From assembly GCF_044324785.1 (NCBI RefSeq), contig NZ_CP172127.1: a DNA stretch of 64,000 bases; one strand, given 5' to 3'. Positions 23,510 through 50,626 of the stretch are shown here, in pieces. This stretch comes from Escherichia coli (GTDB lineage: Bacteria; Pseudomonadota; Gammaproteobacteria; Enterobacterales; Enterobacteriaceae). The notes under the pieces are model-generated. The model made no database searches. It was not told the origin of the DNA and saw only the letters and a list, made by a program, of their open reading frames with translations. The stretch's first letter is position 1; each line of letters opens with the position of its first letter. The translations under genes and the position numbers were made by a program.

Positions 23510-24280
23510 ATGAATTTACAAGGTAAAACTGCGCTGGTGACGGGCTCCACCAGCGGTATCGGACTCGGTATTGCTCAGACACTGGCAAACGCTGGCGCGC
23601 AAGTGATCCTCAACGGCTTCGGTGATGTTGACGCGGCAATCAATGCGGTTTCTCGTATGGGTAAAACGCCTGGCTATCATGAGGCAGACCTCAGCGATGA
23701 ATCGCAAATTATCAACATGATGGCCTACGCACGGCGGGAATTTGGCGGTGTGGACATTCTGGTGAATAACGCAGGGATCCAGTATGTCTCCCCGGTTGAA
23801 TCTTTCCCTGTAGAAAAATGGAACGCCATTATCGCTATCAATCTCTCTTCTGTCTTTCACACCACGCGTCTGGCACTGCCAGAAATGCGCACTCGTAACT
23901 GGGGTCGGATCATTAACATTGCCTCTGTGCATGGGCTGGTAGCGTCGAAAGACAAATCAGCTTATGTTGCGGCAAAACATGGCGTGGTGGGACTCACAAA
24001 GACCATTGCTCTGGAAACTGCGCAGACGGGTATTACCTGCAACGCGCTCTGCCCTGGCTGGGTGCTGACGCCGCTGGTACAACAGCAGATTGATAAGCGC
24101 ATTGCGCAAGGCGAAGATGCGGAAAGCGCGCGTGACGCCTTACTGGCAGAAAAACAGCCTTCTCGTGAATTTGTGACTCCGCAACAACTGGGTGAACTGG
24201 CGCTGTTTCTCTGTTCGGATGCGGCAGCACAAGTGCGTGGGGTGGCGTGGAATATGGATGGCGGTTGGGTAGCGCAGTAA
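23510..24280 (+). CDS. D-3-hydroxybutyrate dehydrogenase (classical SDR), 256 aa
   Basis: SDR motifs TGSTSGIGLGIA (cofactor binding) and YVAAKHG (YxxxK); length and motifs typical of BdhA. Confidence 0.8.
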   Translation: MNLQGKTALVTGSTSGIGLGIAQTLANAGAQVILNGFGDVDAAINAVSRMGKTPGYHEADLSDESQIINMMAYARREFGGVDILVNNAGIQYVSPVESFPVEKWNAIIAINLSSVFHTTRLALPEMRTRNWGRIINIASVHGLVASKDKSAYVAAKHGVVGLTKTIALETAQTGITCNALCPGWVLTPLVQQQIDKRIAQGEDAESARDALLAEKQPSREFVTPQQLGELALFLCSDAAAQVRGVAWNMDGGWVAQ

Positions 24281-24286
24281 GTGTTC

Positions 24287-24308
24287 GCCGGATGACGCGT
24301 CATCCGGC
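24287..24308. repeat. Perfect 22-bp palindrome (REP-like) between the convergent dehydrogenase gene and osmC
   Basis: GCCGGATGACGCGTCATCCGGC is a perfect palindrome between two convergent stop codons; likely a bidirectional terminator or REP unit. Confidence 0.5.
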
Positions 24309-24314
24309 AACGCT

Positions 24315-24746
24315 TTACGATTTCAACTGGTAATCCAGCGTAATTTCCGCTTTCAGTACCTGTGAAACCGGACATCCTGCTTTTGCTTTCTGGATGATGC
24401 CGTCAAAGGTAGAGGCATCAATACCCGGCACCGCAACTTCACTCTTCAGTGCGATTTTCGTAATCGCAAAACCGGCATCCACTTTATCCAGCGACACATC
24501 GGCGATGGTATCAATCGATGTTGGCGTGAATCCCGTTTCCCCCAGCATTAATGAAAGCGCCATTGAGAAACATGCGGCATGCGCTGCGCCAATCAGTTCT
24601 TCAGGGTTGGTTCCTTTTTCGCCTTCAAAACGCGTGTTAAATCCATACGGCTGTTGGTTCAGCACGCCACTCTCGGTGGATACTGTTCCCTTCCCGCGTT
24701 TGATATCGCCTTCCCAGTGTGCCTGACCTTTCTTATGGATTGTCAT
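24315..24746 (-). CDS. osmC: Osmotically inducible peroxiredoxin OsmC, 143 aa
   Basis: Full-length match to OsmC (MTIHKKGQAHWEGDIKRGKG...). Confidence 0.93.
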   Translation of the reverse strand: MTIHKKGQAHWEGDIKRGKGTVSTESGVLNQQPYGFNTRFEGEKGTNPEELIGAAHAACFSMALSLMLGETGFTPTSIDTIADVSLDKVDAGFAITKIALKSEVAVPGIDASTFDGIIQKAKAGCPVSQVLKAEITLDYQLKS

Positions 24747-25090
24747 TGTTGCTCTCCTGTGGGCTTAAAAAGGAAATTATAGACTACGTGAGAAACAGCA
24801 CGAGGATAAGCAGGATATTCCGAATGAAATCCGGCGAAAACATTATCTCTGTACTTAAATTAAATTCCCACAATAGATAACAGGAAATATATGACTCAAA
24901 AGATATTGTATCAATATTAATCGATTCACACCAATAATAATCCCTATCAATATCATAGTGTTAAAATATAAAACTCATCAACCAGGACTAATCTTAACAA
25001 CGAAGCGGCAAATATTTGCCATGCTGAATGTGCTTTATAAATCTGCGATCCGTAGCAGACACCATAAATACACAGACACGGAGAATCACT

Positions 25091-25306
25091 ATGTTTACTT
25101 ATTATCAGGCAGAAAATTCAACAGCAGAACCCGCTCTGGTTAATGCCATTGAGCAAGGCCTTCGGGCAGAGCACGGTGTTGTCACTGAAGATGACATTCT
25201 CATGGAGCTGACCAAATGGGTGGAAGCTTCTGATAACGACATCCTCAGTGATATCTACCAGCAAACGATCAATTATGTGGTCAGTGGCCAGCACCCTACG
25301 CTTTAA
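25091..25306 (+). CDS. bdm: Biofilm-dependent modulation protein Bdm, 71 aa
   Basis: Translation MFTYYQAENSTAEPALVNAIEQGLRAEHGVVTEDDILMELTKWVEASDNDILSDIYQQTINYVVSGQHPTL; internal ATG of track ORF 25028..25306. Confidence 0.8.
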   Translation: MFTYYQAENSTAEPALVNAIEQGLRAEHGVVTEDDILMELTKWVEASDNDILSDIYQQTINYVVSGQHPTL

Positions 25307-25407
25307 GGTGCTATGCTTGATCGGCAACCTAATTTAGGGGTTTAGCACGTGTTTCTTCGCTACGGCGATGTTGTCCTTAAAACTAGCAACAGGATTGAGG
25401 AGTTAAA

Positions 25408-25545
25408 ATGAAATCGAACCGTCAGGCACGTCATATTCTTGGACTGGACCATAAAATTTCTAACCAGCGCAAAATAGTTACCGAAGGTGACAAATCCAGC
25501 GTGGTAAATAACCCAACCGGCAGAAAACGCCCCGCTGAAAAGTAA
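25408..25545 (+). CDS. sra: Stationary-phase ribosome-associated protein Sra (RpsV), 45 aa
   Basis: ORF below the track cutoff, read directly: [45 protein letters not shown]; SD GGAG upstream. Confidence 0.8.
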
Positions 25546-25575
25546 TTCATAACCATCAGTCCTCAATGACGATTA

Positions 25576-25610
25576 AACACCATTGCCTGCGCAATGGTGT
25601 TTTTGTTTTT
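25576..25610 (+). terminator. Rho-independent terminator after sra
   Basis: Inverted repeat AACACCATTGC...GCAATGGTGTT followed by TTTTGTTTTT. Confidence 0.6.
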
Positions 25611-25701
25611 ATCTGCTTTATACTTGGGGCCGACGCCCTGGCGGTAAAGCAAAGACGATAAAAGCGTGCCAGGGATGGATATTCAAAAAAGAGTGAGTGA
25701 C

Positions 25702-27399
25702 ATGGAACCAAAAACAAAAAAACAGCGTTCGCTTTATATCCCTTACGCTGGCCCTGTACTGCTGGAATTTCCGTTGTTGAATAAAGGCAGCGCCTTCAGC
25801 ATGGAAGAACGCCGTAACTTCAACCTGCTGGGGTTACTGCCGGAAGTGGTCGAAACCATCGAAGAACAAGCGGAACGAGCATGGATCCAGTATCAGGGAT
25901 TCAAAACCGAAATCGACAAACACATCTACCTGCGTAACATCCAGGACACCAACGAAACCCTCTTCTACCGTCTGGTAAACAATCATCTTGATGAGATGAT
26001 GCCTGTTATTTATACCCCAACCGTCGGCGCAGCCTGTGAGCGTTTTTCTGAGATCTACCGCCGTTCACGCGGCGTGTTTATCTCTTACCAGAACCGCCAC
26101 AATATGGACGATATTCTGCAAAACGTACCAAACCATAATATCAAAGTGATTGTGGTGACTGACGGCGAACGTATTCTGGGGCTTGGTGACCAGGGCATCG
26201 GCGGGATGGGCATTCCGATCGGTAAACTGTCGCTCTATACCGCCTGTGGCGGCATCAGCCCGGCGTATACCCTTCCGGTGGTGCTGGATGTCGGGACGAA
26301 CAACCAACAGCTGCTTAACGATCCGCTGTATATGGGCTGGCGTAATCCGCGTATCACTGACGACGAATACTATGAATTCGTTGATGAATTTATCCAGGCT
26401 GTGAAACAACGCTGGCCGGACGTACTGTTGCAGTTTGAAGACTTCGCACAAAAAAATGCGATGCCGTTACTTAACCGCTATCGCAATGAAATTTGTTCCT
26501 TTAACGATGACATTCAGGGCACTGCGGCGGTAACAGTCGGCACCCTGATCGCAGCCAGCCGCGCGGCGGGTGGTCAGTTAAGCGAGAAAAAAATCGTCTT
26601 CCTTGGCGCAGGTTCAGCGGGATGCGGCATTGCCGAAATGATCATCGCCCAGACTCAGCGTGAAGGATTAAGCGAGGAAACGGCGCGGCAGAAAGTCTTT
26701 ATGGTCGATCGCTTTGGCCTGCTGACCGACAAGATGCCGAACCTGCTGCCTTTCCAGACCAAACTGGTGCAGAAACGCGAAAACCTCAGTGACTGGGATA
26801 CCGACAGCGATGTGCTGTCACTGCTGGATGTGGTGCGCAATGTAAAACCAGATATTCTGATTGGCGTCTCAGGACAGACCGGGCTGTTTACGGAAGAGAT
26901 CATCCGTGAGATGCATAAACACTGTCCGCGTCCGATCGTGATGCCGCTGTCTAACCCGACGTCACGCGTGGAAGCCACACCGCAGGACATTATCGCCTGG
27001 ACCGAAGGTAACGCGCTGGTCGCCACTGGCAGCCCGTTTAATCCAGTGGTATGGAAAGATAAAATCTACCCTATCGCCCAGTGTAACAACGCCTTTATTT
27101 TCCCGGGCATCGGCCTGGGTGTTATTGCTTCCGGTGCGTCACGTATCACCGATGAGATGCTGATGTCGGCAAGTGAAACGCTTGCTCAGTATTCGCCGCT
27201 GGTGCTGAACGGCGAAGGTCTGGTACTACCGGAACTGAAAGATATTCAGAAAGTCTCCCGCGCAATTGCGTTTGCGGTTGGCAAAATGGCGCAGCAGCAA
27301 GGCGTGGCGGTGAAAACGTCTGCCGAAGCTCTGCAACAGGCCATTGATGATAATTTCTGGCACGCCGAATACCGCGACTACCGCCGTACCTCCATCTAA
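25702..27399 (+). CDS. maeA: NAD-dependent malic enzyme, 565 aa
   Basis: Translation from [22 protein letters not shown]... matches MaeA (SfcA); start taken at the internal ATG of the track ORF. Confidence 0.92.
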
Positions 27400-27532
27400 G
27401 CCTGCGCCCGGTGGTGAAAGCTGCCGGGCAATTTCCCTCTCCCTTTTTCAGATCTCATCCATACTGGGTAGTGGCGAATAAATCTCATTTGCCTCACCTG
27501 CTATGCAGAACATCATCCGAAAAGGAGGAACT

Positions 27533-28543
27533 ATGAAGGCTGCAGTTGTTACGAAGGATCATCATGTTGACGTTACGGATAAAACACTGCGCTCACTGAA
27601 ACATGGCGAAGCCCTGCTGAAAATGGAGTGTTGTGGTGTATGTCATACCGATCTTCATGTGAAGAATGGCGATTTTGGTGACAAAACCGGCGTAATTCTG
27701 GGCCATGAAGGTATTGGTGTGGTGGCAGAAGTTGGCCCAGGTGTCACCTCATTAAAACCAGGCGATCGTGCCAGCGTGGCGTGGTTTTACGAAGGATGCG
27801 GTCATTGCGAATACTGTAATAGTGGTAACGAAACCCTCTGCCGTTCTGTTAAAAACGCCGGATACAGCGTCGATGGCGGGATGGCTGAAGAGTGCATCGT
27901 GGTCGCCGATTACGCGGTAAAAGTGCCCGATGGCCTGGACTCGGCGGCGGCCAGCAGCATTACCTGTGCGGGAGTCACCACCTACAAAGCCGTTAAGCTG
28001 TCAAAAATTCGTCCCGGTCAGTGGATTGCTATCTACGGTCTTGGTGGACTGGGTAACCTCGCCCTGCAATACGCGAAGAATGTCTTTAACGCCAAAGTGA
28101 TCGCCATTGATGTCAATGATGAGCAGTTGAAACTGGCAACCGAAATGGGTGCAGATTTAGCGATTAACTCACGCACCGAAGACGCCGCCAAAATTGTGCA
28201 AGAAAAAACCGGTGGCGCTCACGCCGCGGTGGTGACAGCGGTAGCTAAAGCTGCGTTTAACTCGGCGGTTGATGCTGTTCGTGCAGGCGGGCGTGTTGTG
28301 GCAGTCGGTCTGCCGCCGGAGTCTATGAGCCTGGATATCCCACGGCTGGTGCTGGATGGTATTGAAGTGGTCGGTTCGCTGGTCGGCACGCGCCAGGATC
28401 TCACCGAAGCCTTCCAGTTTGCGGCCGAAGGCAAAGTGGTGCCGAAAGTCGCCCTGCGTCCGTTAGCGGACATCAACACCATCTTTACCGAGATGGAAGA
28501 AGGCAAAATCCGTGGCCGTATGGTAATTGATTTCCGCCGCTAA
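27533..28543 (+). CDS. adhP: Zinc-dependent alcohol dehydrogenase (propanol-preferring), 336 aa
   Basis: [15 protein letters not shown]...; zinc-ADH motifs (GHEGIG, CGVCHTD); SD AGGAGG upstream. Confidence 0.92.
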
Positions 28544-28688
28544 GAGGCCTTTGCTGCGACTGCCATGTTCGGGTCGCAGCATCGCACACTCTCCAACATG
28601 AAATGGCTAAATGGATTATTGTTGCGTAGGAAGGAACAATAATGATAGTGTTCCCAGTGAAGGAACGCTACTGAGAGTAAAGACACTA

Positions 28689-28973
28689 ATGAAAATGGCC
28701 AATCATCCCCGCCCGGGGGACATTATTCAGGAATCACTCGACGAACTTAATGTCAGCCTGCGCGAGTTTGCCAGAGCAATGGAAATTGCGCCCTCAACGG
28801 CAAGCCGATTGCTGACCGGAAAAGCAGCTTTGACGCCAGAAATGGCAATTAAACTTTCCGTGGTGATCGGCAGTTCGCCGCAAATGTGGCTGAATCTGCA
28901 AAACGCCTGGAGCCTGGCAGAGGCTGAAAAAACGGTGGATGTGTCGCGACTGCGCCGTCTGGTTACGCAATAA
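28689..28973 (+). CDS. yddM: XRE/HigA-like HTH DNA-binding protein, 94 aa
   Basis: HTH region ([35 protein letters not shown]); matches YddM; no intact partner toxin gene in the 145-bp upstream gap. Confidence 0.7.
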
Positions 28974-29003
28974 AAAAATGGCGCTTCTTAAAGCGCCATT
29001 TTC
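28974..29003. terminator. Bidirectional terminator between convergent yddM and fdnI
   Basis: Hairpin AATGGCGCT-TCTTA-AAGCGCCATT flanked by A-run on one side and T-run on the other. Confidence 0.55.
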
Positions 29004-29023
29004 AGCTTAAAGTTCAAAAGAGA

Positions 29024-29677
29024 TTATATCCCTTCTTCACTCTCTTTTTTCGCTTCCGCCTTCTCGATTTCACGATACCAGCGCGGATGGTGTTTCTTCG
29101 CCCAGCGACGGCTCACCTTCCCTTCGATCATCCCTTTAATCGACCCTTTCACCCAGAATGCCATATACATATGGATCAGGATGGCGTGGATCAGGATGAT
29201 ACCCGCAGCCGCGTGAATCAGCAGGCTGTAGCGGACAACCTGCATCGGGAAGTACTGCGCAAAGTACGGACGCCAGATAATCACCCCGGTCACCAACAGC
29301 ACGAAAATCATGCTCATGATCGACCAGAACATCATCTTTTGCCCGGCGTTGTACTTACCGACATCCGCCACTTTGTGCTCATTGCCTTTTAATACTTCGA
29401 CAATGTTCAACAGCCACGGAATATCTTTCTTATCCGGGATGTTGTGATGCACAAAACGCACAAACATAAACATCAGCGCGACGAAAATCGCAATGCCGAA
29501 GAACGGGTGCAAAATGCGTCCCATCTGCGGCGTACCGAAGGTTTGCGTCAGCCATTGCAGCGTCGGGAAGAAGAACGAAATCCCGGACAGCGCCACCAGG
29601 AAGAAGCAAATCACCACGGTCCAGTGACAGGCGCGATCAATAAATTTGGTGCGCACAATCATTTTCGACTTACTCAT
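29024..29677 (-). CDS. fdnI: Formate dehydrogenase-N gamma subunit (cytochrome b556), 217 aa
   Basis: Starts [21 protein letters not shown]...; multi-pass heme-b protein; start overlaps the fdnH 3' end. Confidence 0.9.
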
Positions 29678-30554
29678 GATGATCCTCCTCGTCATCGTCC
29701 ACTTCCTTATTCGGGCCAATACCGATGTAGTGGAAAATCAACCCGGCAAAAGTGGCAATAAAGCCAGCCGCTGCCAGCGGTTTCAACGCGCCTTTCCACA
29801 GGCTTACCGAGGTGTCGATCTTCGGATCTTTCGGCAGACCGTGATACAGCTCCGGCTGATCGGCATGATGCAACACGTACATAACGTGCGTACCACCGAC
29901 CCCTTCCGGGTTGTAGACGCCAGCATGTTCGTAACCACGCGCTTTCAGTTTCGCCACGCGCTGTTCCGCCAGCTCCAGCATCTCCTTCTTGGTGCCGAAG
30001 TGGATAGCCCCGGTCGGACAGGTTTTCACACAAGCCGGTTCCTGGCCGACGCTGACGCGATCGACGCAGAGCGTGCATTTATATACCCGGTTATCCTCTT
30101 TGTTGAGGCGCGGAATATTAAACGGACACCCGGCAATGCAGTAACCACAGCCGATGCAGTTTTCCGACTGGAAATCGACAATCCCGTTAGCGTACTGAAT
30201 GATTGCACCAGCAGACGGGCACGCCTTCAGGCAGCCCGGATCTTCACAGTGCATACAGCCGTCTTTACGGATCAGCCACTCCAGCTTGCCGTTCTGTTCG
30301 GTTTCGCTAAAGCGCATCACCGTCCAGGACTTGGCGCTCAGATCGGCGGGGTTATCGTAAACCCCGACGCAGTGCCCCACTTCATCACGGATGTCGTTCC
30401 ACTCCGAACACGCCACCTGACAGGCTTTACAACCGATACAGGTGGAAACGTCGATAAGTTTCGCGACTTCTGCTTTGTAATCACGCACCTGAGAAGGCGG
30501 CGTGATGGAGTTAGTTGCGGACCTTTTGATAATGTCCTGCGTTTCCATAGCCAT
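29670..30554 (-). CDS. fdnH: Formate dehydrogenase-N beta subunit (4x[4Fe-4S]), 294 aa
   Basis: Multiple CxxCxxCxxxCP ferredoxin motifs and a C-terminal transmembrane anchor. Confidence 0.92.
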
Positions 30555-30566
30555 CTGTTCGCCCCC

Positions 30567-33500
30567 TTACGCCTTCTCGATGTTTACTAAGAACGCTTTA
30601 TATTCCGGCGTTTGCGAGTTTGCATCACCGACATTAGGCGTCAGAGTGTTAGCGATATAACCTTTGCGCGCGACACCCTCAAAGCCCCAGTGGATTGGAA
30701 TACCCACCGTTTCAACCTGCTGACCGTTTACATTCAGCGGCTTCAGACGGCGCGTTACCACAGCCACCGCGCGGATAAAGCCACGCTTGCTGGATACGGT
30801 GACACGGTCGCCATTGGCGATGCCTTTCGCCGCCGCCAGCGTTTCGCTGATTTCTACAAACTGTTCCGGCTGAGCAATTGCGTTGAGCAACGCGTGCTTG
30901 GTCCAGGTGTGGAAGTGCTCGGTCAGACGATAGGTCGTACCCACATACGGGAACTGCTCTTTTTTACCCATCCGCAGCGCGTCTTGTTCATACAGACGAA
31001 CCACCGGGTTAGACACCACGTTCGGATGCAGCGGGTTAGTGCCCAGCGGCGTTTCGATTGGCTCGTAGTGTTCCGGGAACGGACCTTCCGCCATTTTGTT
31101 GATGGCAAACAGACGTCCCATCCCTTCCGGCTGCATGATAAACGGCCCGGTTGGCGTACCCGGTGCGGCATTGCCGAAGTCAGGAATATCGTTACCCGTC
31201 CACTTGCTGCCGTTCCACTGGATCAGCATCCGTTTCGGATCCCACGGTTTACCGTTGATATCCGCCGAAGCACGGTTGTAGAGTACGCGACGGTTGAGCG
31301 GCCACGCCCAGGCCCATCCCAGCGTATTCCCCAGACCGGACGGGTCGGAGTTATCGCGGTTAGCCATCTGGTTGCCCTGCTCTGTCCAGCTACCGGTGTA
31401 TATCCAGCAAGACGATGCGGTTGTACCGTCATCACGCAGATGCGCAAAGCTACTCAGCAACTGACCTTTCTTCGCAATCAGCACGCCATTAGCATCATAG
31501 AGATCTTCCAGCGCATAGCCGTTATTCTCTTTCGCCACTTCGTCAGACTGCGGTTCGTGCGGCTGCTTGTAGTTCCAGCTCATCTTCATCAGCGGTTCTA
31601 CGCCTTTACCACCTTCGGCCTGGTACAGCTCGCGCAGATGATGGTAGATACCCGCCAGAATTTCGCCGTCGTTACGCGCTTCGCCCGGCGCGTCCTGACC
31701 TTTCCAGTGCCACTGCAACCAGCGACCGGAGTTAGCAATAGAACCATCTTCTTCAGCAAAGCAGGTCGAAGGCAGACGGAATACTTCAGTCTGAATAGAC
31801 GCCGGATCGACATCGTTCGACTCGCCGTGGTTCTGCCAGAAGGTAGAAGTTTCAGTCACCAGCGGATCGATAACCACCATGTACTTCAGCTTGCTCAGGC
31901 AGCTAACCACTTTGTTTTTGTCCGGGAAGGACGCAACCGGGTTAAAGCCCTGGCAGAAATAACCGGTGACTTTGCCTTCATCCATCATGTTGAAATACTT
32001 GATGACGTCGTAGGTCTGGTCCCACTTAGGCAGCCAGTCGTAGCCCCAGTTGTTCTCTTTCTGCGCGGCATCGCCGTAGAAAGATTTCATCAGGCTAACG
32101 AAGAACTTCGGATAGTTGCTCCAGTAGTTCACCTGATCAGCCAGCGTCGCTTTCGGCGTGTTCGCTTCCAGATACGACTGCAAATCAACCTGTTTTTCTG
32201 ACGGCAGCGTCAGATAACCCGGCAGGCTGGTAGAGAGCAGGCCTAAGTCGGTCAGGCCCTGAATGTTGGAGTGACCACGCAATGCGTTCACACCGCCACC
32301 GGCCATACCCATGTTACCGAGCAGTAACTGGATCATCGCCATAGTACGGATGTTCTGCGCACCCACGGTGTGCTGCGTCCAGCCCAGCGCGTACAGGAAG
32401 GTGGTTGTGCGATCCGGTGCGCTGGTGGAGGCCAGCACTTCACACACTTTCAGGAAGTCGGCTTTTGGCGTACCACAGATGTTTTCTACTACGTCTGGCG
32501 TGTAGCGGGAAACGTGCGCTTTCAGCAGGTTCCACACACAGCGCGGATGAGTCAGCGTGTCATCGCGTTTCGCATAGCCGTTTTCATCGAACTGATAGTT
32601 CCAGGACGATTTATCGTACTGGCGTTTTTCAGCGTCATAACCGCTGAACAGGCCATCTTCGAAAGCAAAATCATCACGCACCAGCAGGCTGGCGTTAGTG
32701 TAATGCTTAACGTATTCGGCGTTGATTTTGTTGTTTTCGATCAGGTAGCGCAAAACGCCAGACAGGAACGTAATGTCCGTACCGGAACGAATAGGTGCGT
32801 AAATATCCGCCACAGAAGCGGTACGCGTAAAACGGGGATCGACAACGATCAAGGTTGCATCGTTGTTGTTTTTCGCTTCCATCGCCCAGCGGAAACCGAC
32901 GGGATGCGCTTCAGCAGCATTACCGCCCATCACCATTACGACGTTAGCGTTTTTGATATCCACCCAGTGGTTGGTCATCGCACCGCGACCAAATGTTGGA
33001 GCAAGACTTGCTACCGTTGGTCCGTGTCAGACGCGCGCCTGGTTGTCTACCGCCAGCATACCGAGGGAGCGGGCAAATTTTTGAGTCAGCATCCCGGTTT
33101 CGTTGCTGGCACCGGAGGCACACAGCATACCGGTAGAAAGCCAACGGTTTACCGTTACGCCCTGCTCGTTCTTTTCAATAAAGTTAGCGTCACGGTCAGC
33201 TTTCATCAGCTTCGCAATACGGGAGAATGCTTCTTCCCAGCTAATGCGCTGCCATTTGTCAGAACCTGGCGCACGATATTCCGGGTAGCGCAGACGGTTT
33301 TCGCTGTTGACGTAATCCAGCAAACCGGCCCCTTTCGGGCACAGCGCACCACGGCTTACCGGATGATCCGGGTCACCTTCAATGTGATAAATTGCTTCTC
33401 TGGCGTTTTTCGCGCCATCACCCAGGCTATACATCAATAGCCCGCAACCTACGGAACAGTATGTGCAGGTGTTACGGATCTCTTTAGCGCGTAATAATTT

Positions 33501-33614
33501 GTAGTTTCGCGCCTGAGCCAGTGCTTGCTTTGGGGCAAAGCCCAATGCCGCTACTGTTGTTCCAGCCATACCGCCCGCGCAGATTTTAAAAAATTGTCTG
33601 CGACTGACGTCCAT
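30567..33614 (-). CDS. fdnG: Formate dehydrogenase-N alpha subunit, selenoprotein, 1015 aa with an in-frame UGA (Sec) at 33027..33029
   Basis: Two track ORFs (33027..33614 and 30567..32978) are in the same frame, separated only by one TGA; N-terminal Tat signal MDVSRRQFFKICAGG; molybdopterin oxidoreductase motifs. Confidence 0.93.
32985..33026 (-). other. Predicted SECIS element directing Sec insertion at the fdnG UGA
   Basis: Bacterial SECIS hairpins lie immediately 3' of the UGA; the mRNA here (CACGGACCAACGGUAGCAAGUCUUGCUCCAACAUUUGG) has self-complementary segments; structure not computed. Confidence 0.4.
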
Positions 33615-49780: not shown

Positions 49781-50626
49781 TTATTTTCCCGCCTCCGGGT
49801 GCGTATCAAACGCCGCCATCACCAGCGCTAACTCATCCACGGTAAAGCCATGTTTCGCATCATCCACCCCCAGACCAAACTGTTCCTGCATCACGGCATA
49901 TAACGACGCCACATCTGGTAGATTTCGCTGCTCCACCGCGTGCCCATTTTCATAATGGGTAAAATGAAAATTGGTCAGTGTCAGCTTGCCGCCGTCCGGC
50001 AAATGGCGGCACATCAGCAAATGATGGCGAAAATGCGACTGCGGCCAGTGCGCAGACCAGAAATTGCCCATTACATAATCGCTTTGTTGCTGCTCGCAGA
50101 GATCAAAACGGTACATCGACTGCCAGTGCTGATGATGATTAAACTGCAACACCCAATCATCACCCGCCTGTAACAACCGATACTCTCCGTGTGGCGTGAT
50201 CTGCACGAGATCGGGAACTAAACGAATCGGCGCGGTTAGCGTCTGTCCACCGAAACCGACATCAGCAATCCATTTTTCCCCTTCCAGTTCCACCAACAAC
50301 AAACGATGGGTGCGCGGCGGTAATGCTGGCGGATTTGATAACACTACGCGCCCTAACAAGCTGCGAACGTTAAACCCCAGCTCGCGTAACACCCGCTCAA
50401 ACACGCCATTCTGCTCAAAACAGTAACCGCCACGACGGGCTATCACCAGTTTCTCTTCCAGCGATTGATCATCAAGCTGTATTTCCCTCGGCAGCAAAAC
50501 GTCGAGATTTTCAAACGGAATGGTGCAATTGTGTTTCAGGTGCAATGCACGCAGCGTATCAATATTGGCCGCAGCAGCTCCCGACCAGTTAATACGGGCA
50601 AAATAATGATTCAGAATGGGCGTCAT
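49781..50626 (-). CDS. nhoA: N-hydroxyarylamine O-acetyltransferase, 281 aa
   Basis: Matches NhoA (arylamine N-acetyltransferase family). Confidence 0.9.
   Translation of the reverse strand: MTPILNHYFARINWSGAAAANIDTLRALHLKHNCTIPFENLDVLLPREIQLDDQSLEEKLVIARRGGYCFEQNGVFERVLRELGFNVRSLLGRVVLSNPPALPPRTHRLLLVELEGEKWIADVGFGGQTLTAPIRLVPDLVQITPHGEYRLLQAGDDWVLQFNHHQHWQSMYRFDLCEQQQSDYVMGNFWSAHWPQSHFRHHLLMCRHLPDGGKLTLTNFHFTHYENGHAVEQRNLPDVASLYAVMQEQFGLGVDDAKHGFTVDELALVMAAFDTHPEAGK

Follow-up and report, generated by a model that had tools for sequence, protein, structure and literature searches.

Introduction

The best described relative of the locus studied here is the HigB-HigA module of Rts1. Dimers of Rts1 HigA bind two operators that lie over the -35 and -10 elements, and HigA alone represses the promoter Phig about 211-fold, the toxin being unneeded; in Rts1 HigB, H54A has been used experimentally as an inactivating mutation (PMC12266136). 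The HigA of Pseudomonas aeruginosa (PA4674) binds palindromes in its own promoter, in mvfR and in pel, and is thus a transcription factor for other genes (PMC6987408). Its action beyond its own operon is a precedent for additional targets of the E. coli protein YddM. In E. coli, strains HS and K-12 carry only the antitoxin partner at the TA20 locus (PMC7232551, 2020). The same study found YbaQ to be solo in K-12 and HS as well, with the partner parE-1 present in NRG857c and a pseudogene in CFT073. YbaQ has also been studied as an uncharacterised transcription factor, and ChIP-exo in K-12 confirmed that YddM is a DNA-binding transcription factor and yielded a motif for it (PMC6237786).

The HigA-family name of YddM in RefSeq, its crystal structure and the antitoxin-only state of K-12 and HS (PMC7232551) are already known. 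Here, we add the synteny of the locus across genera, the frequencies of its alleles in E. coli, the retained operators, an operator inversion allele, a count of the ST131 frameshift and an estimate of selection on yddM.

Results

Locus and protein

The window, the whole stretch of E. coli DNA analysed (64,000 nucleotides), contains an E. coli-type region with the gene order maeA-adhP-yddM-fdnIHG. The alcohol dehydrogenase ORF (27533-28543, plus strand) is annotated as adhP in all matching E. coli records, and its stop codon forms the left edge of a gap of exactly 145 bp (28544-28688). The yddM gene follows on the plus strand (28689-28973; ATG at 28689, stop at 28971-28973) and encodes a 94-aa HigA-family antitoxin with an XRE-type HTH domain. 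Its convergent downstream neighbour is fdnI (formate dehydrogenase-N gamma subunit; 29024-29677, minus strand), which serves as a conserved anchor for the higB-yddM pair in different genera. Between them, a bidirectional terminator hairpin at 28975-29002 is shared by yddM (plus) and fdnI (minus). Folding gave -16.2 kcal/mol for the plus strand (z -4.2) and -17.6 kcal/mol for the minus strand, followed by U7; the hairpin can terminate in both directions because an A-run and a U-run flank it. The ORFs and this hairpin confirmed the surroundings given in a preliminary description of the locus, with adhP upstream and a terminator and fdnI downstream.

Between yddM and fdnI, strains differ in the number of copies of a 178-bp unit that contains REP/BIME sequences and a duplicate of the terminator hairpin: no copy is present in the window (28974-29023), one in O157:H7 and two in tandem in K-12-like strains (L003:2185-2558; L004:2175-2401). 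Over 10 kb (24000-34000), none of 5426 complete E. coli genomes exceeded 98.4% identity to the window; PCN033, SCU-102 and 7CC came closest, so the source lineage of the window is absent from that collection. Of the 1011 sites of its adhP gene (27533-28543), 31 differ from the closest allele, yet the AdhP proteins are 100% identical by tblastn.

YddM was HigA-like in profile searches, as the preliminary description had it. It matched the NCBIfam equivalog TIGR02607 (antidote_HigA, HigA family addiction module antitoxin) with 93.7 bits against a cutoff of 47.7; residues 3-81 covered profile positions 1-80 of 81, a full-length match. Pfam PF01381 (HTH_3) was matched with an E value of 7.6e-10 and 39.1 bits (cutoff 23), indicating an XRE/Cro-type helix-turn-helix domain. 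The crystallised "antitoxin HigA" (PDB 2ICP/2ICT), of which the 2ICP structure is attributed to E. coli CFT073 (PMC6987408), is YddM itself, with 100% identity over all 94 residues; the next-best solved relatives in the PDB search were HigA chains from Proteus vulgaris (Rts1), with E values of about 1e-18. A single RefSeq protein, WP_000781370.1, is annotated for YddM in strains in which the toxin is absent, frameshifted or intact. The gene of a HigA-family protein is expected directly downstream of a HigB (PF05015) gene. This is not the case for yddM in the window, whereas at the orthologous locus 1331 E. coli genomes and over 25 representatives of other species have yddM paired with HigB. 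The window thus has no complete type II toxin-antitoxin module, which would include an intact co-transcribed toxin ORF, and shows instead the features of a solo antitoxin, with an intact antitoxin ORF, no toxin beside it and a toxin at orthologous loci. YddM belongs to the HigA family by descent and is solo in the window.

Search for a toxin in the window

The preliminary description had reported that no RelE/HigB-like gene lies beside yddM. With 12 HigB orthologues as queries, including Rts1 HigB, a permissive tblastn of the whole 64-kb window indeed gave nothing significant in 28400-29100 (best E value 0.72). The best HigB match anywhere in the window (E value 0.003, 50141-50317) was rejected as chance; it lies inside a 281-aa ORF (49781-50626) that we take to be nhoA. 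The ORF list, local alignment and tblastn likewise revealed no toxin ORF and no detectable or translatable toxin remnant in 28544-28688 or its flanks. An Rfam scan of 28300-29200 returned only sub-threshold, terminator-like matches and no known RNA in the gap.

The gap begins with a hairpin after adhP (28552-28581, plus strand), which was found by repeat search and folding and has perfect 9-nt arms (TGCTGCGAC/GTCGCAGCA). In the toxin-less allele (28552-28590) it is followed by AUCGCACAC and has no U-tract, whereas in the toxin-bearing allele (L002:1753-1790) it is followed by CUGUUUUG. Since the U-tract is missing, adhP transcription may read through into yddM in the lineage of the window. An allele-specific spacer comes next (28582-28614, plus strand); in the toxin-bearing allele its place is taken by about 80 bp of different sequence, with which it could not be aligned. 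In a consensus promoter and terminator scan of 28450-29100, nothing reached the threshold; the terminator hairpin was found by folding instead, and the position of the yddM promoter is one that we infer.

As the preliminary description noted, the 145-bp gap contains a 14-codon ORF (28598-28642, plus strand), which is nested in a 25-codon ORF starting at 28565. One could imagine that the shorter ORF or its longer form (28565-28642) encodes a small toxic peptide that now pairs with YddM as a replacement toxin. However, the ORF overlaps the putative operator O1 described below and is absent from toxin-bearing alleles. It is not conserved among toxin-less alleles either: in the type represented by L048 (1061 E. 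coli genomes) its ATG is ATT, and the upstream ATG falls in a rearranged hairpin loop. We judged the ORF to be spurious and give a replacement toxin practically no credence.

Partner toxin at orthologous loci

The comparison with other Enterobacteriaceae that the preliminary description had suggested did reveal an intact higB-higA pair at the same fdnI-adjacent position. An intact toxin gene next to yddM was found only in other genomes and not in the window. In strain SW070912, a 92-aa toxin (WP_000605676.1) is encoded between adhP and yddM, and its stop codon overlaps the yddM start codon (TGATG). RefSeq labels the toxin at this position "type II toxin-antitoxin system RelE/ParE family toxin" and marks it as frameshifted in strain uk_P46212. 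WP_000605676.1 matched Pfam PF05015 (HigB-like_toxin) with an E value of 1.4e-17. In a comparison with Rts1 HigB (4MCT; E value 8e-32), 52 of 92 residues (57%) were identical, including H54 and the C-terminal YEDYH.

One genome per species was scanned with YddM, which gave 41 loci, and these were then searched by tblastn with AdhP, FdnI, MaeA and the toxin. The higB-yddM pair lay beside fdnI in E. albertii, in three other Escherichia representatives and in about 13 Citrobacter genomes, and also in Pluralibacter, Enterobacter sp. CC120223-11 and 'Enterobacteriaceae bacterium 89'. Most of the more divergent homologues, as far as those in MAGs of Deltaproteobacteria, were paired too. Since the pair occupies the same fdnI-adjacent site in other genera, the comparison of loci indicates that the higB-higA pair is ancestral at this site and that the toxin-less allele of the window is derived, by loss and not by gain. 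The preliminary description had left a choice between an orphan antitoxin-like regulator and the remnant of a pair whose toxin gene was lost; with intact higB genes at orthologous loci, both are right and are the same thing.

Allele classes in E. coli and toxin decay

When 28300-29100 was compared by megablast with the 5426 complete E. coli genomes, 5413 had the locus, which fell into several length classes. Toxin DNA was present in 1331 of the 5426 (24.5%), among them the type strain ATCC 11775, Nissle 1917, S88, UM146 and ST131. The toxin-less gap of the window type was found in 3024 genomes, and the K-12 gap is identical to it; the inversion type (L048) was found in 1061, which include O104:H4, O111:H8, O103:H2 and ETEC strains. 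In 545 genomes, two of which are labelled O25b:H4-ST131, the toxin gene has one and the same -1 frameshift (ACGCCACC-ACTCGC; L001:2019-2032), which cuts the toxin after about 33 codons. With this ST131-type frameshift, E. coli has arrived at a solo YddM a second time and independently. Roughly, the toxin ORF is missing in 75% of E. coli genomes and frameshifted in 10%, so that an intact one is possible in at most 15%.

Damage to the toxin next to an intact antitoxin was also observed outside E. coli, where it is independent of the E. coli deletion. The toxin has an internal deletion in Citrobacter sp. FP75 and a frameshift in both C. portucalensis A60 and Xenorhabdus lircayensis, and is reduced to a C-terminal stub in X. 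khoisanae and Chimaeribacter californicus.

These data also bear on the opposite history, in which yddM was ancestrally solo and B2-type E. coli acquired the upstream toxin gene. Such a gain would fit the minority status of toxin-bearing alleles in E. coli (24.5%) and their enrichment in extraintestinal and AIEC pathogens. However, the pair occurs at the same fdnI-adjacent site in E. albertii, other Escherichia, many Citrobacter, Pluralibacter and Enterobacter, toxin identity drops in parallel with antitoxin identity across the outgroup loci, and the solo states outside E. coli retain visible toxin remnants. We therefore regard a gain of the toxin as highly implausible and the loss of an ancestral toxin as the direction of change.

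Some single-strain rearrangements were seen at the locus. E. coli GDSC2239PM (L050:829-2975) has lost the 3' part of adhP and the whole of yddM to IS3 and IS150, which stand in their place, and an IS200/IS605 transposase lies within the locus in E. coli W46 (hit H22). The O157:H7 strain TR01 (L006:1102-1246) has a mosaic gap, also of 145 bp, consisting of 34 bp of toxin-allele spacer, 29 bp of the normal allele and 45 bp of the toxin 3' end. It was considered as an intermediate that retains 45 bp of the toxin 3' end and rejected, occurring in 1 of 5426 genomes. Because the replaced segments (34 and 45 bp) equal the normal-allele lengths exactly and in one genome, the mosaic is probably an assembly or polishing artefact; it could also be a real recombinant.

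Operators and deletion junction

The gap contains two 19-bp palindromes that are putative operators, O1 at 28620-28638 (TGTTGC-N7-GGAACA) and O2 at 28649-28667 (TGTTCC-N7-GGAACG). They are separated by ATAATGATAG, and their centre-to-centre distance in the window is 29 bp. We aligned 17 loci from Escherichia, Citrobacter, Enterobacter, Pluralibacter and one other Enterobacteriaceae genome (five genus-level groups). The half-sites of O1 (GTTGCG and G(G/C)AACA) were invariant or nearly so and the motifs GTTCC and GA(A/G)GGAAC of O2 invariant in this alignment; the surrounding sequence varied.

A perfect 9-nt inverted repeat (ATTATTGTT/AACAATAAT; 28615-28643) flanks an 11-bp core of O1 (28624-28634). 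The core reads GCGTAGGAAGG in the window and is replaced by its exact reverse complement CCTTCCTACGC in the L048 type (L048:1816-1844, approximate), that is, in 1061 of 5426 genomes (~20%). The inversion exchanges the GTTGC and GTTCC half-sites. The L048 type shares the allele-specific flanks of the window, and thus the same deletion is present in both toxin-less types. A single row, E. coli AST215 (L049:2464-2579), showed the loss of 29 bp between direct GGAAGGAAC-like repeats. This loss joins O1 (left half) to O2 (right half), resulting in one hybrid operator and a 116-bp gap.

In alignments, the adhP-yddM interval measured 463 bp in toxin-bearing alleles versus 145 bp in the window. Local alignment of the gap segments with both strands of the 463-bp toxin-bearing region found only the operator core to be homologous; the 34-bp left segment (p 0.77-0.94) and the 21-bp right segment scored no better than shuffles. 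Since the gap outside the operators is unalignable, the event was more complex than one clean excision. The junction and the yddM leader occupy 28668-28688 on the plus strand (CTACTGAGAGTAAAGACACTA). MAFFT placed the junction at an ATGAA microhomology common to the toxin start and the yddM start. A clean deletion between these microhomologies was rejected as the sole explanation, the L048 sequence CACTGATG and the anchored alignments slightly favouring the toxin 3' end. In L048-type alleles, CACTGATG stands directly before yddM, exactly as the last codon and stop of the toxin do. Right-anchored alignment of the 21 nt before the yddM ATG to the toxin 3' end gave p 0.09 for the window and p 0.02 for L048, versus no support for a match of the same 21 nt to the toxin leader (p 0.12-0.75). 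Segment 28668-28688 may be what is left, in degenerate form, of the final toxin codons with the stop (TGA in L048, TAA in the window). The resemblance to the toxin 3' end in the window is weak and spans at most about 25 nt.

Selection on yddM

Among ten Escherichia alleles of yddM, pN/pS was 0.03 for the six toxin-bearing alleles and 0.06 for the toxin-less ones, an estimate from four sequences only. Summed over pairs, the toxin-less alleles had 32 synonymous and 6 non-synonymous differences. At the protein level, YddM does not change between E. albertii and K-12-like strains, although their genes differ by 12-13 synonymous substitutions. These data indicate that yddM is under strong purifying selection.

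The low pN/pS argues against a drifting relic, namely a yddM that became functionless on loss of the toxin and is decaying slowly towards a pseudogene. This reading has some points in its favour: yddM is dispensable in the laboratory, where Keio and lambda-Red deletion mutants exist, a few natural strains have lost it through an IS3/IS150 rearrangement, and no yddM phenotype has been confirmed by complementation. However, besides the pN/pS of 0.06 in toxin-less alleles and a protein unchanged through up to 13 synonymous differences, the locus was kept in 5413 of 5426 genomes, yddM carried no pseudogene flag in any of 10 E. coli records, and the operator half-sites were retained. We consider neutral decay very unlikely. 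The survival of the operator module through the deletion and an antitoxin that is under strong purifying selection rather than decaying go beyond what the preliminary description had proposed.

Selection could also act on YddM as an anti-addiction factor, which would be kept for neutralising a HigB encoded elsewhere, on a plasmid or the chromosome, and not for regulation. Such a role has been put forward for orphan antitoxins in reviews (PMC7354431). The YddM that accompanies the B2 toxin has the identical sequence, so neutralisation of that toxin is to be expected, and HigB homologues were found on 539 plasmid records, 99 of them from Escherichia. However, the closest plasmid HigB was 56.5% identical, with all 536 records below 60% once three at 90-100% identity were set aside; of these three, the one listed is 4.9 Mb and resembles a chromosome filed as a plasmid. 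Cross-neutralisation at 56.5% identity is unproven. Furthermore, a toxin homologue is absent from the 64-kb window, and there was no K-12 HigB/HigA chain among the PDB matches of YddM or the toxin, so the ygjN-ygjM pair is not detectably related. An anti-addiction role appears unlikely on balance, and it would be compatible with the history of toxin loss preferred here.

Discussion

Our results make it very probable that yddM is the surviving antitoxin of an ancient chromosomal, toxin-first higB-higA operon, from which the toxin was deleted while the operators were kept, leaving what would be a self-repressing solo regulator. The proposed sequence of events starts from a type II higB-higA operon beside fdnI, a position that the operon occupies in Escherichia, Citrobacter and related genera. 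A net deletion of about 320 bp took the 92-codon HigB ORF and the upstream spacer in the lineage of the window, and with it in about 75% of complete E. coli genomes. The deletion left both putative operators, now 21 bp upstream of the yddM start codon. Bound to O1 and O2, YddM dimers would repress their own promoter with no need of the toxin; we infer this autorepression from the analogy with Rts1 HigA and from the retention of both palindromes through the deletion. The gene would thereby persist as a low-level, self-regulated solo HTH regulator. Since toxin-carrying strains make the very same protein, YddM should still be able to neutralise its cognate HigB in a strain that regains the toxin allele.

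Several published observations concern transcription and function of yddM in present-day strains. In support of the proposed autorepression, a SELEX peak of the sigma-70 holoenzyme has been mapped between adhP and yddM in K-12, whose gap is that of the window (PMC3946193). Further chromosomal targets of YddM have been reported from ChIP-exo and CRISPRi work in K-12. A CRISPRi preprint of 2025 described new regulatory connections and expression changes at putative YddM sites (bioRxiv 10.64898/2025.12.20.695731). In addition, yddM belongs to a multi-stress differential-expression set (PMC9501238), genetic-interaction data tie it to stress regulators (PMC9283627), and the Keio yddM deletion strain is hypersusceptible to epetraborole, as seen without complementation (PMC12457515). 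A more far-reaching reading is that the host has adopted YddM as a stand-alone, stress-linked transcription factor with a small regulon of its own and a promoter re-tuned after toxin loss, which we hold to be conceivable but doubtful. The loss of the U-tract of the adhP terminator, the replaced spacer and the flipped 11-bp operator core (about 20% of genomes) may be signs of such re-tuning. If so, the three natural promoter alleles would lead to different YddM levels and regulatory outputs.

Toxin loss followed by retention of a self-repressing antitoxin, which we prefer, makes the locus a clean, datable case of the decay of a chromosomal toxin-antitoxin module, although no new kind of system is revealed. 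In at least six lineages the toxin was lost first, by deletion, frameshift or internal deletion, while the antitoxin and operators stay under selection. For annotation, the name "HigA antitoxin" at this locus does not imply a working toxin-antitoxin system, and B2, ExPEC and AIEC strains differ from K-12-like strains in carrying the toxin. The locus also offers a natural experiment, with three promoter alleles and with the toxin present, absent or frameshifted, in which a solo antitoxin can be viewed as a regulator or as an anti-addiction factor.

Comparison with known systems places the locus close to TA20 (parE-2/higA-2) of AIEC strain NRG857c, in which a 279-bp toxin gene abuts a 285-bp HigA gene, the same sizes and arrangement as in the toxin-bearing alleles. 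Unlike TA20 and the CFT073 HigA locus, the window has no toxin ORF, and the putative operators, the antitoxin and the terminator remain. The paralogue YbaQ of E. coli K-12 (PDB 2EBY; E value 5.6e-9) is XRE/HigA-like as well; however, it is encoded at another locus, has 113 aa and is distant in sequence. The HigA of P. aeruginosa (PA4674) has the fold of CFT073 HigA, which is YddM, with a Z score of 12.6 to 2ICP (PMC6987408). However, it retains its toxin and binds a palindrome, TTAAC GTTAA, that bears no relation to the GTT(G/C)C...GGAAC of the window. The Rts1 module from Proteus vulgaris has the toxin-first order, a 92-aa HigB 57% identical to the lost toxin and a HigA that resembles YddM in the N-terminal HTH domain (E value 1.3e-18). 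Its promoter has two operators and is repressed by HigA alone (PMC12266136), and the window has two putative operators. The Rts1 operators differ from these in sequence and in spacing, which is about 22 bp by the published contact positions versus 29 bp centre to centre in the window. Finally, the Rts1 module is plasmid-borne and complete, whereas that of the window is chromosomal and has lost its toxin.
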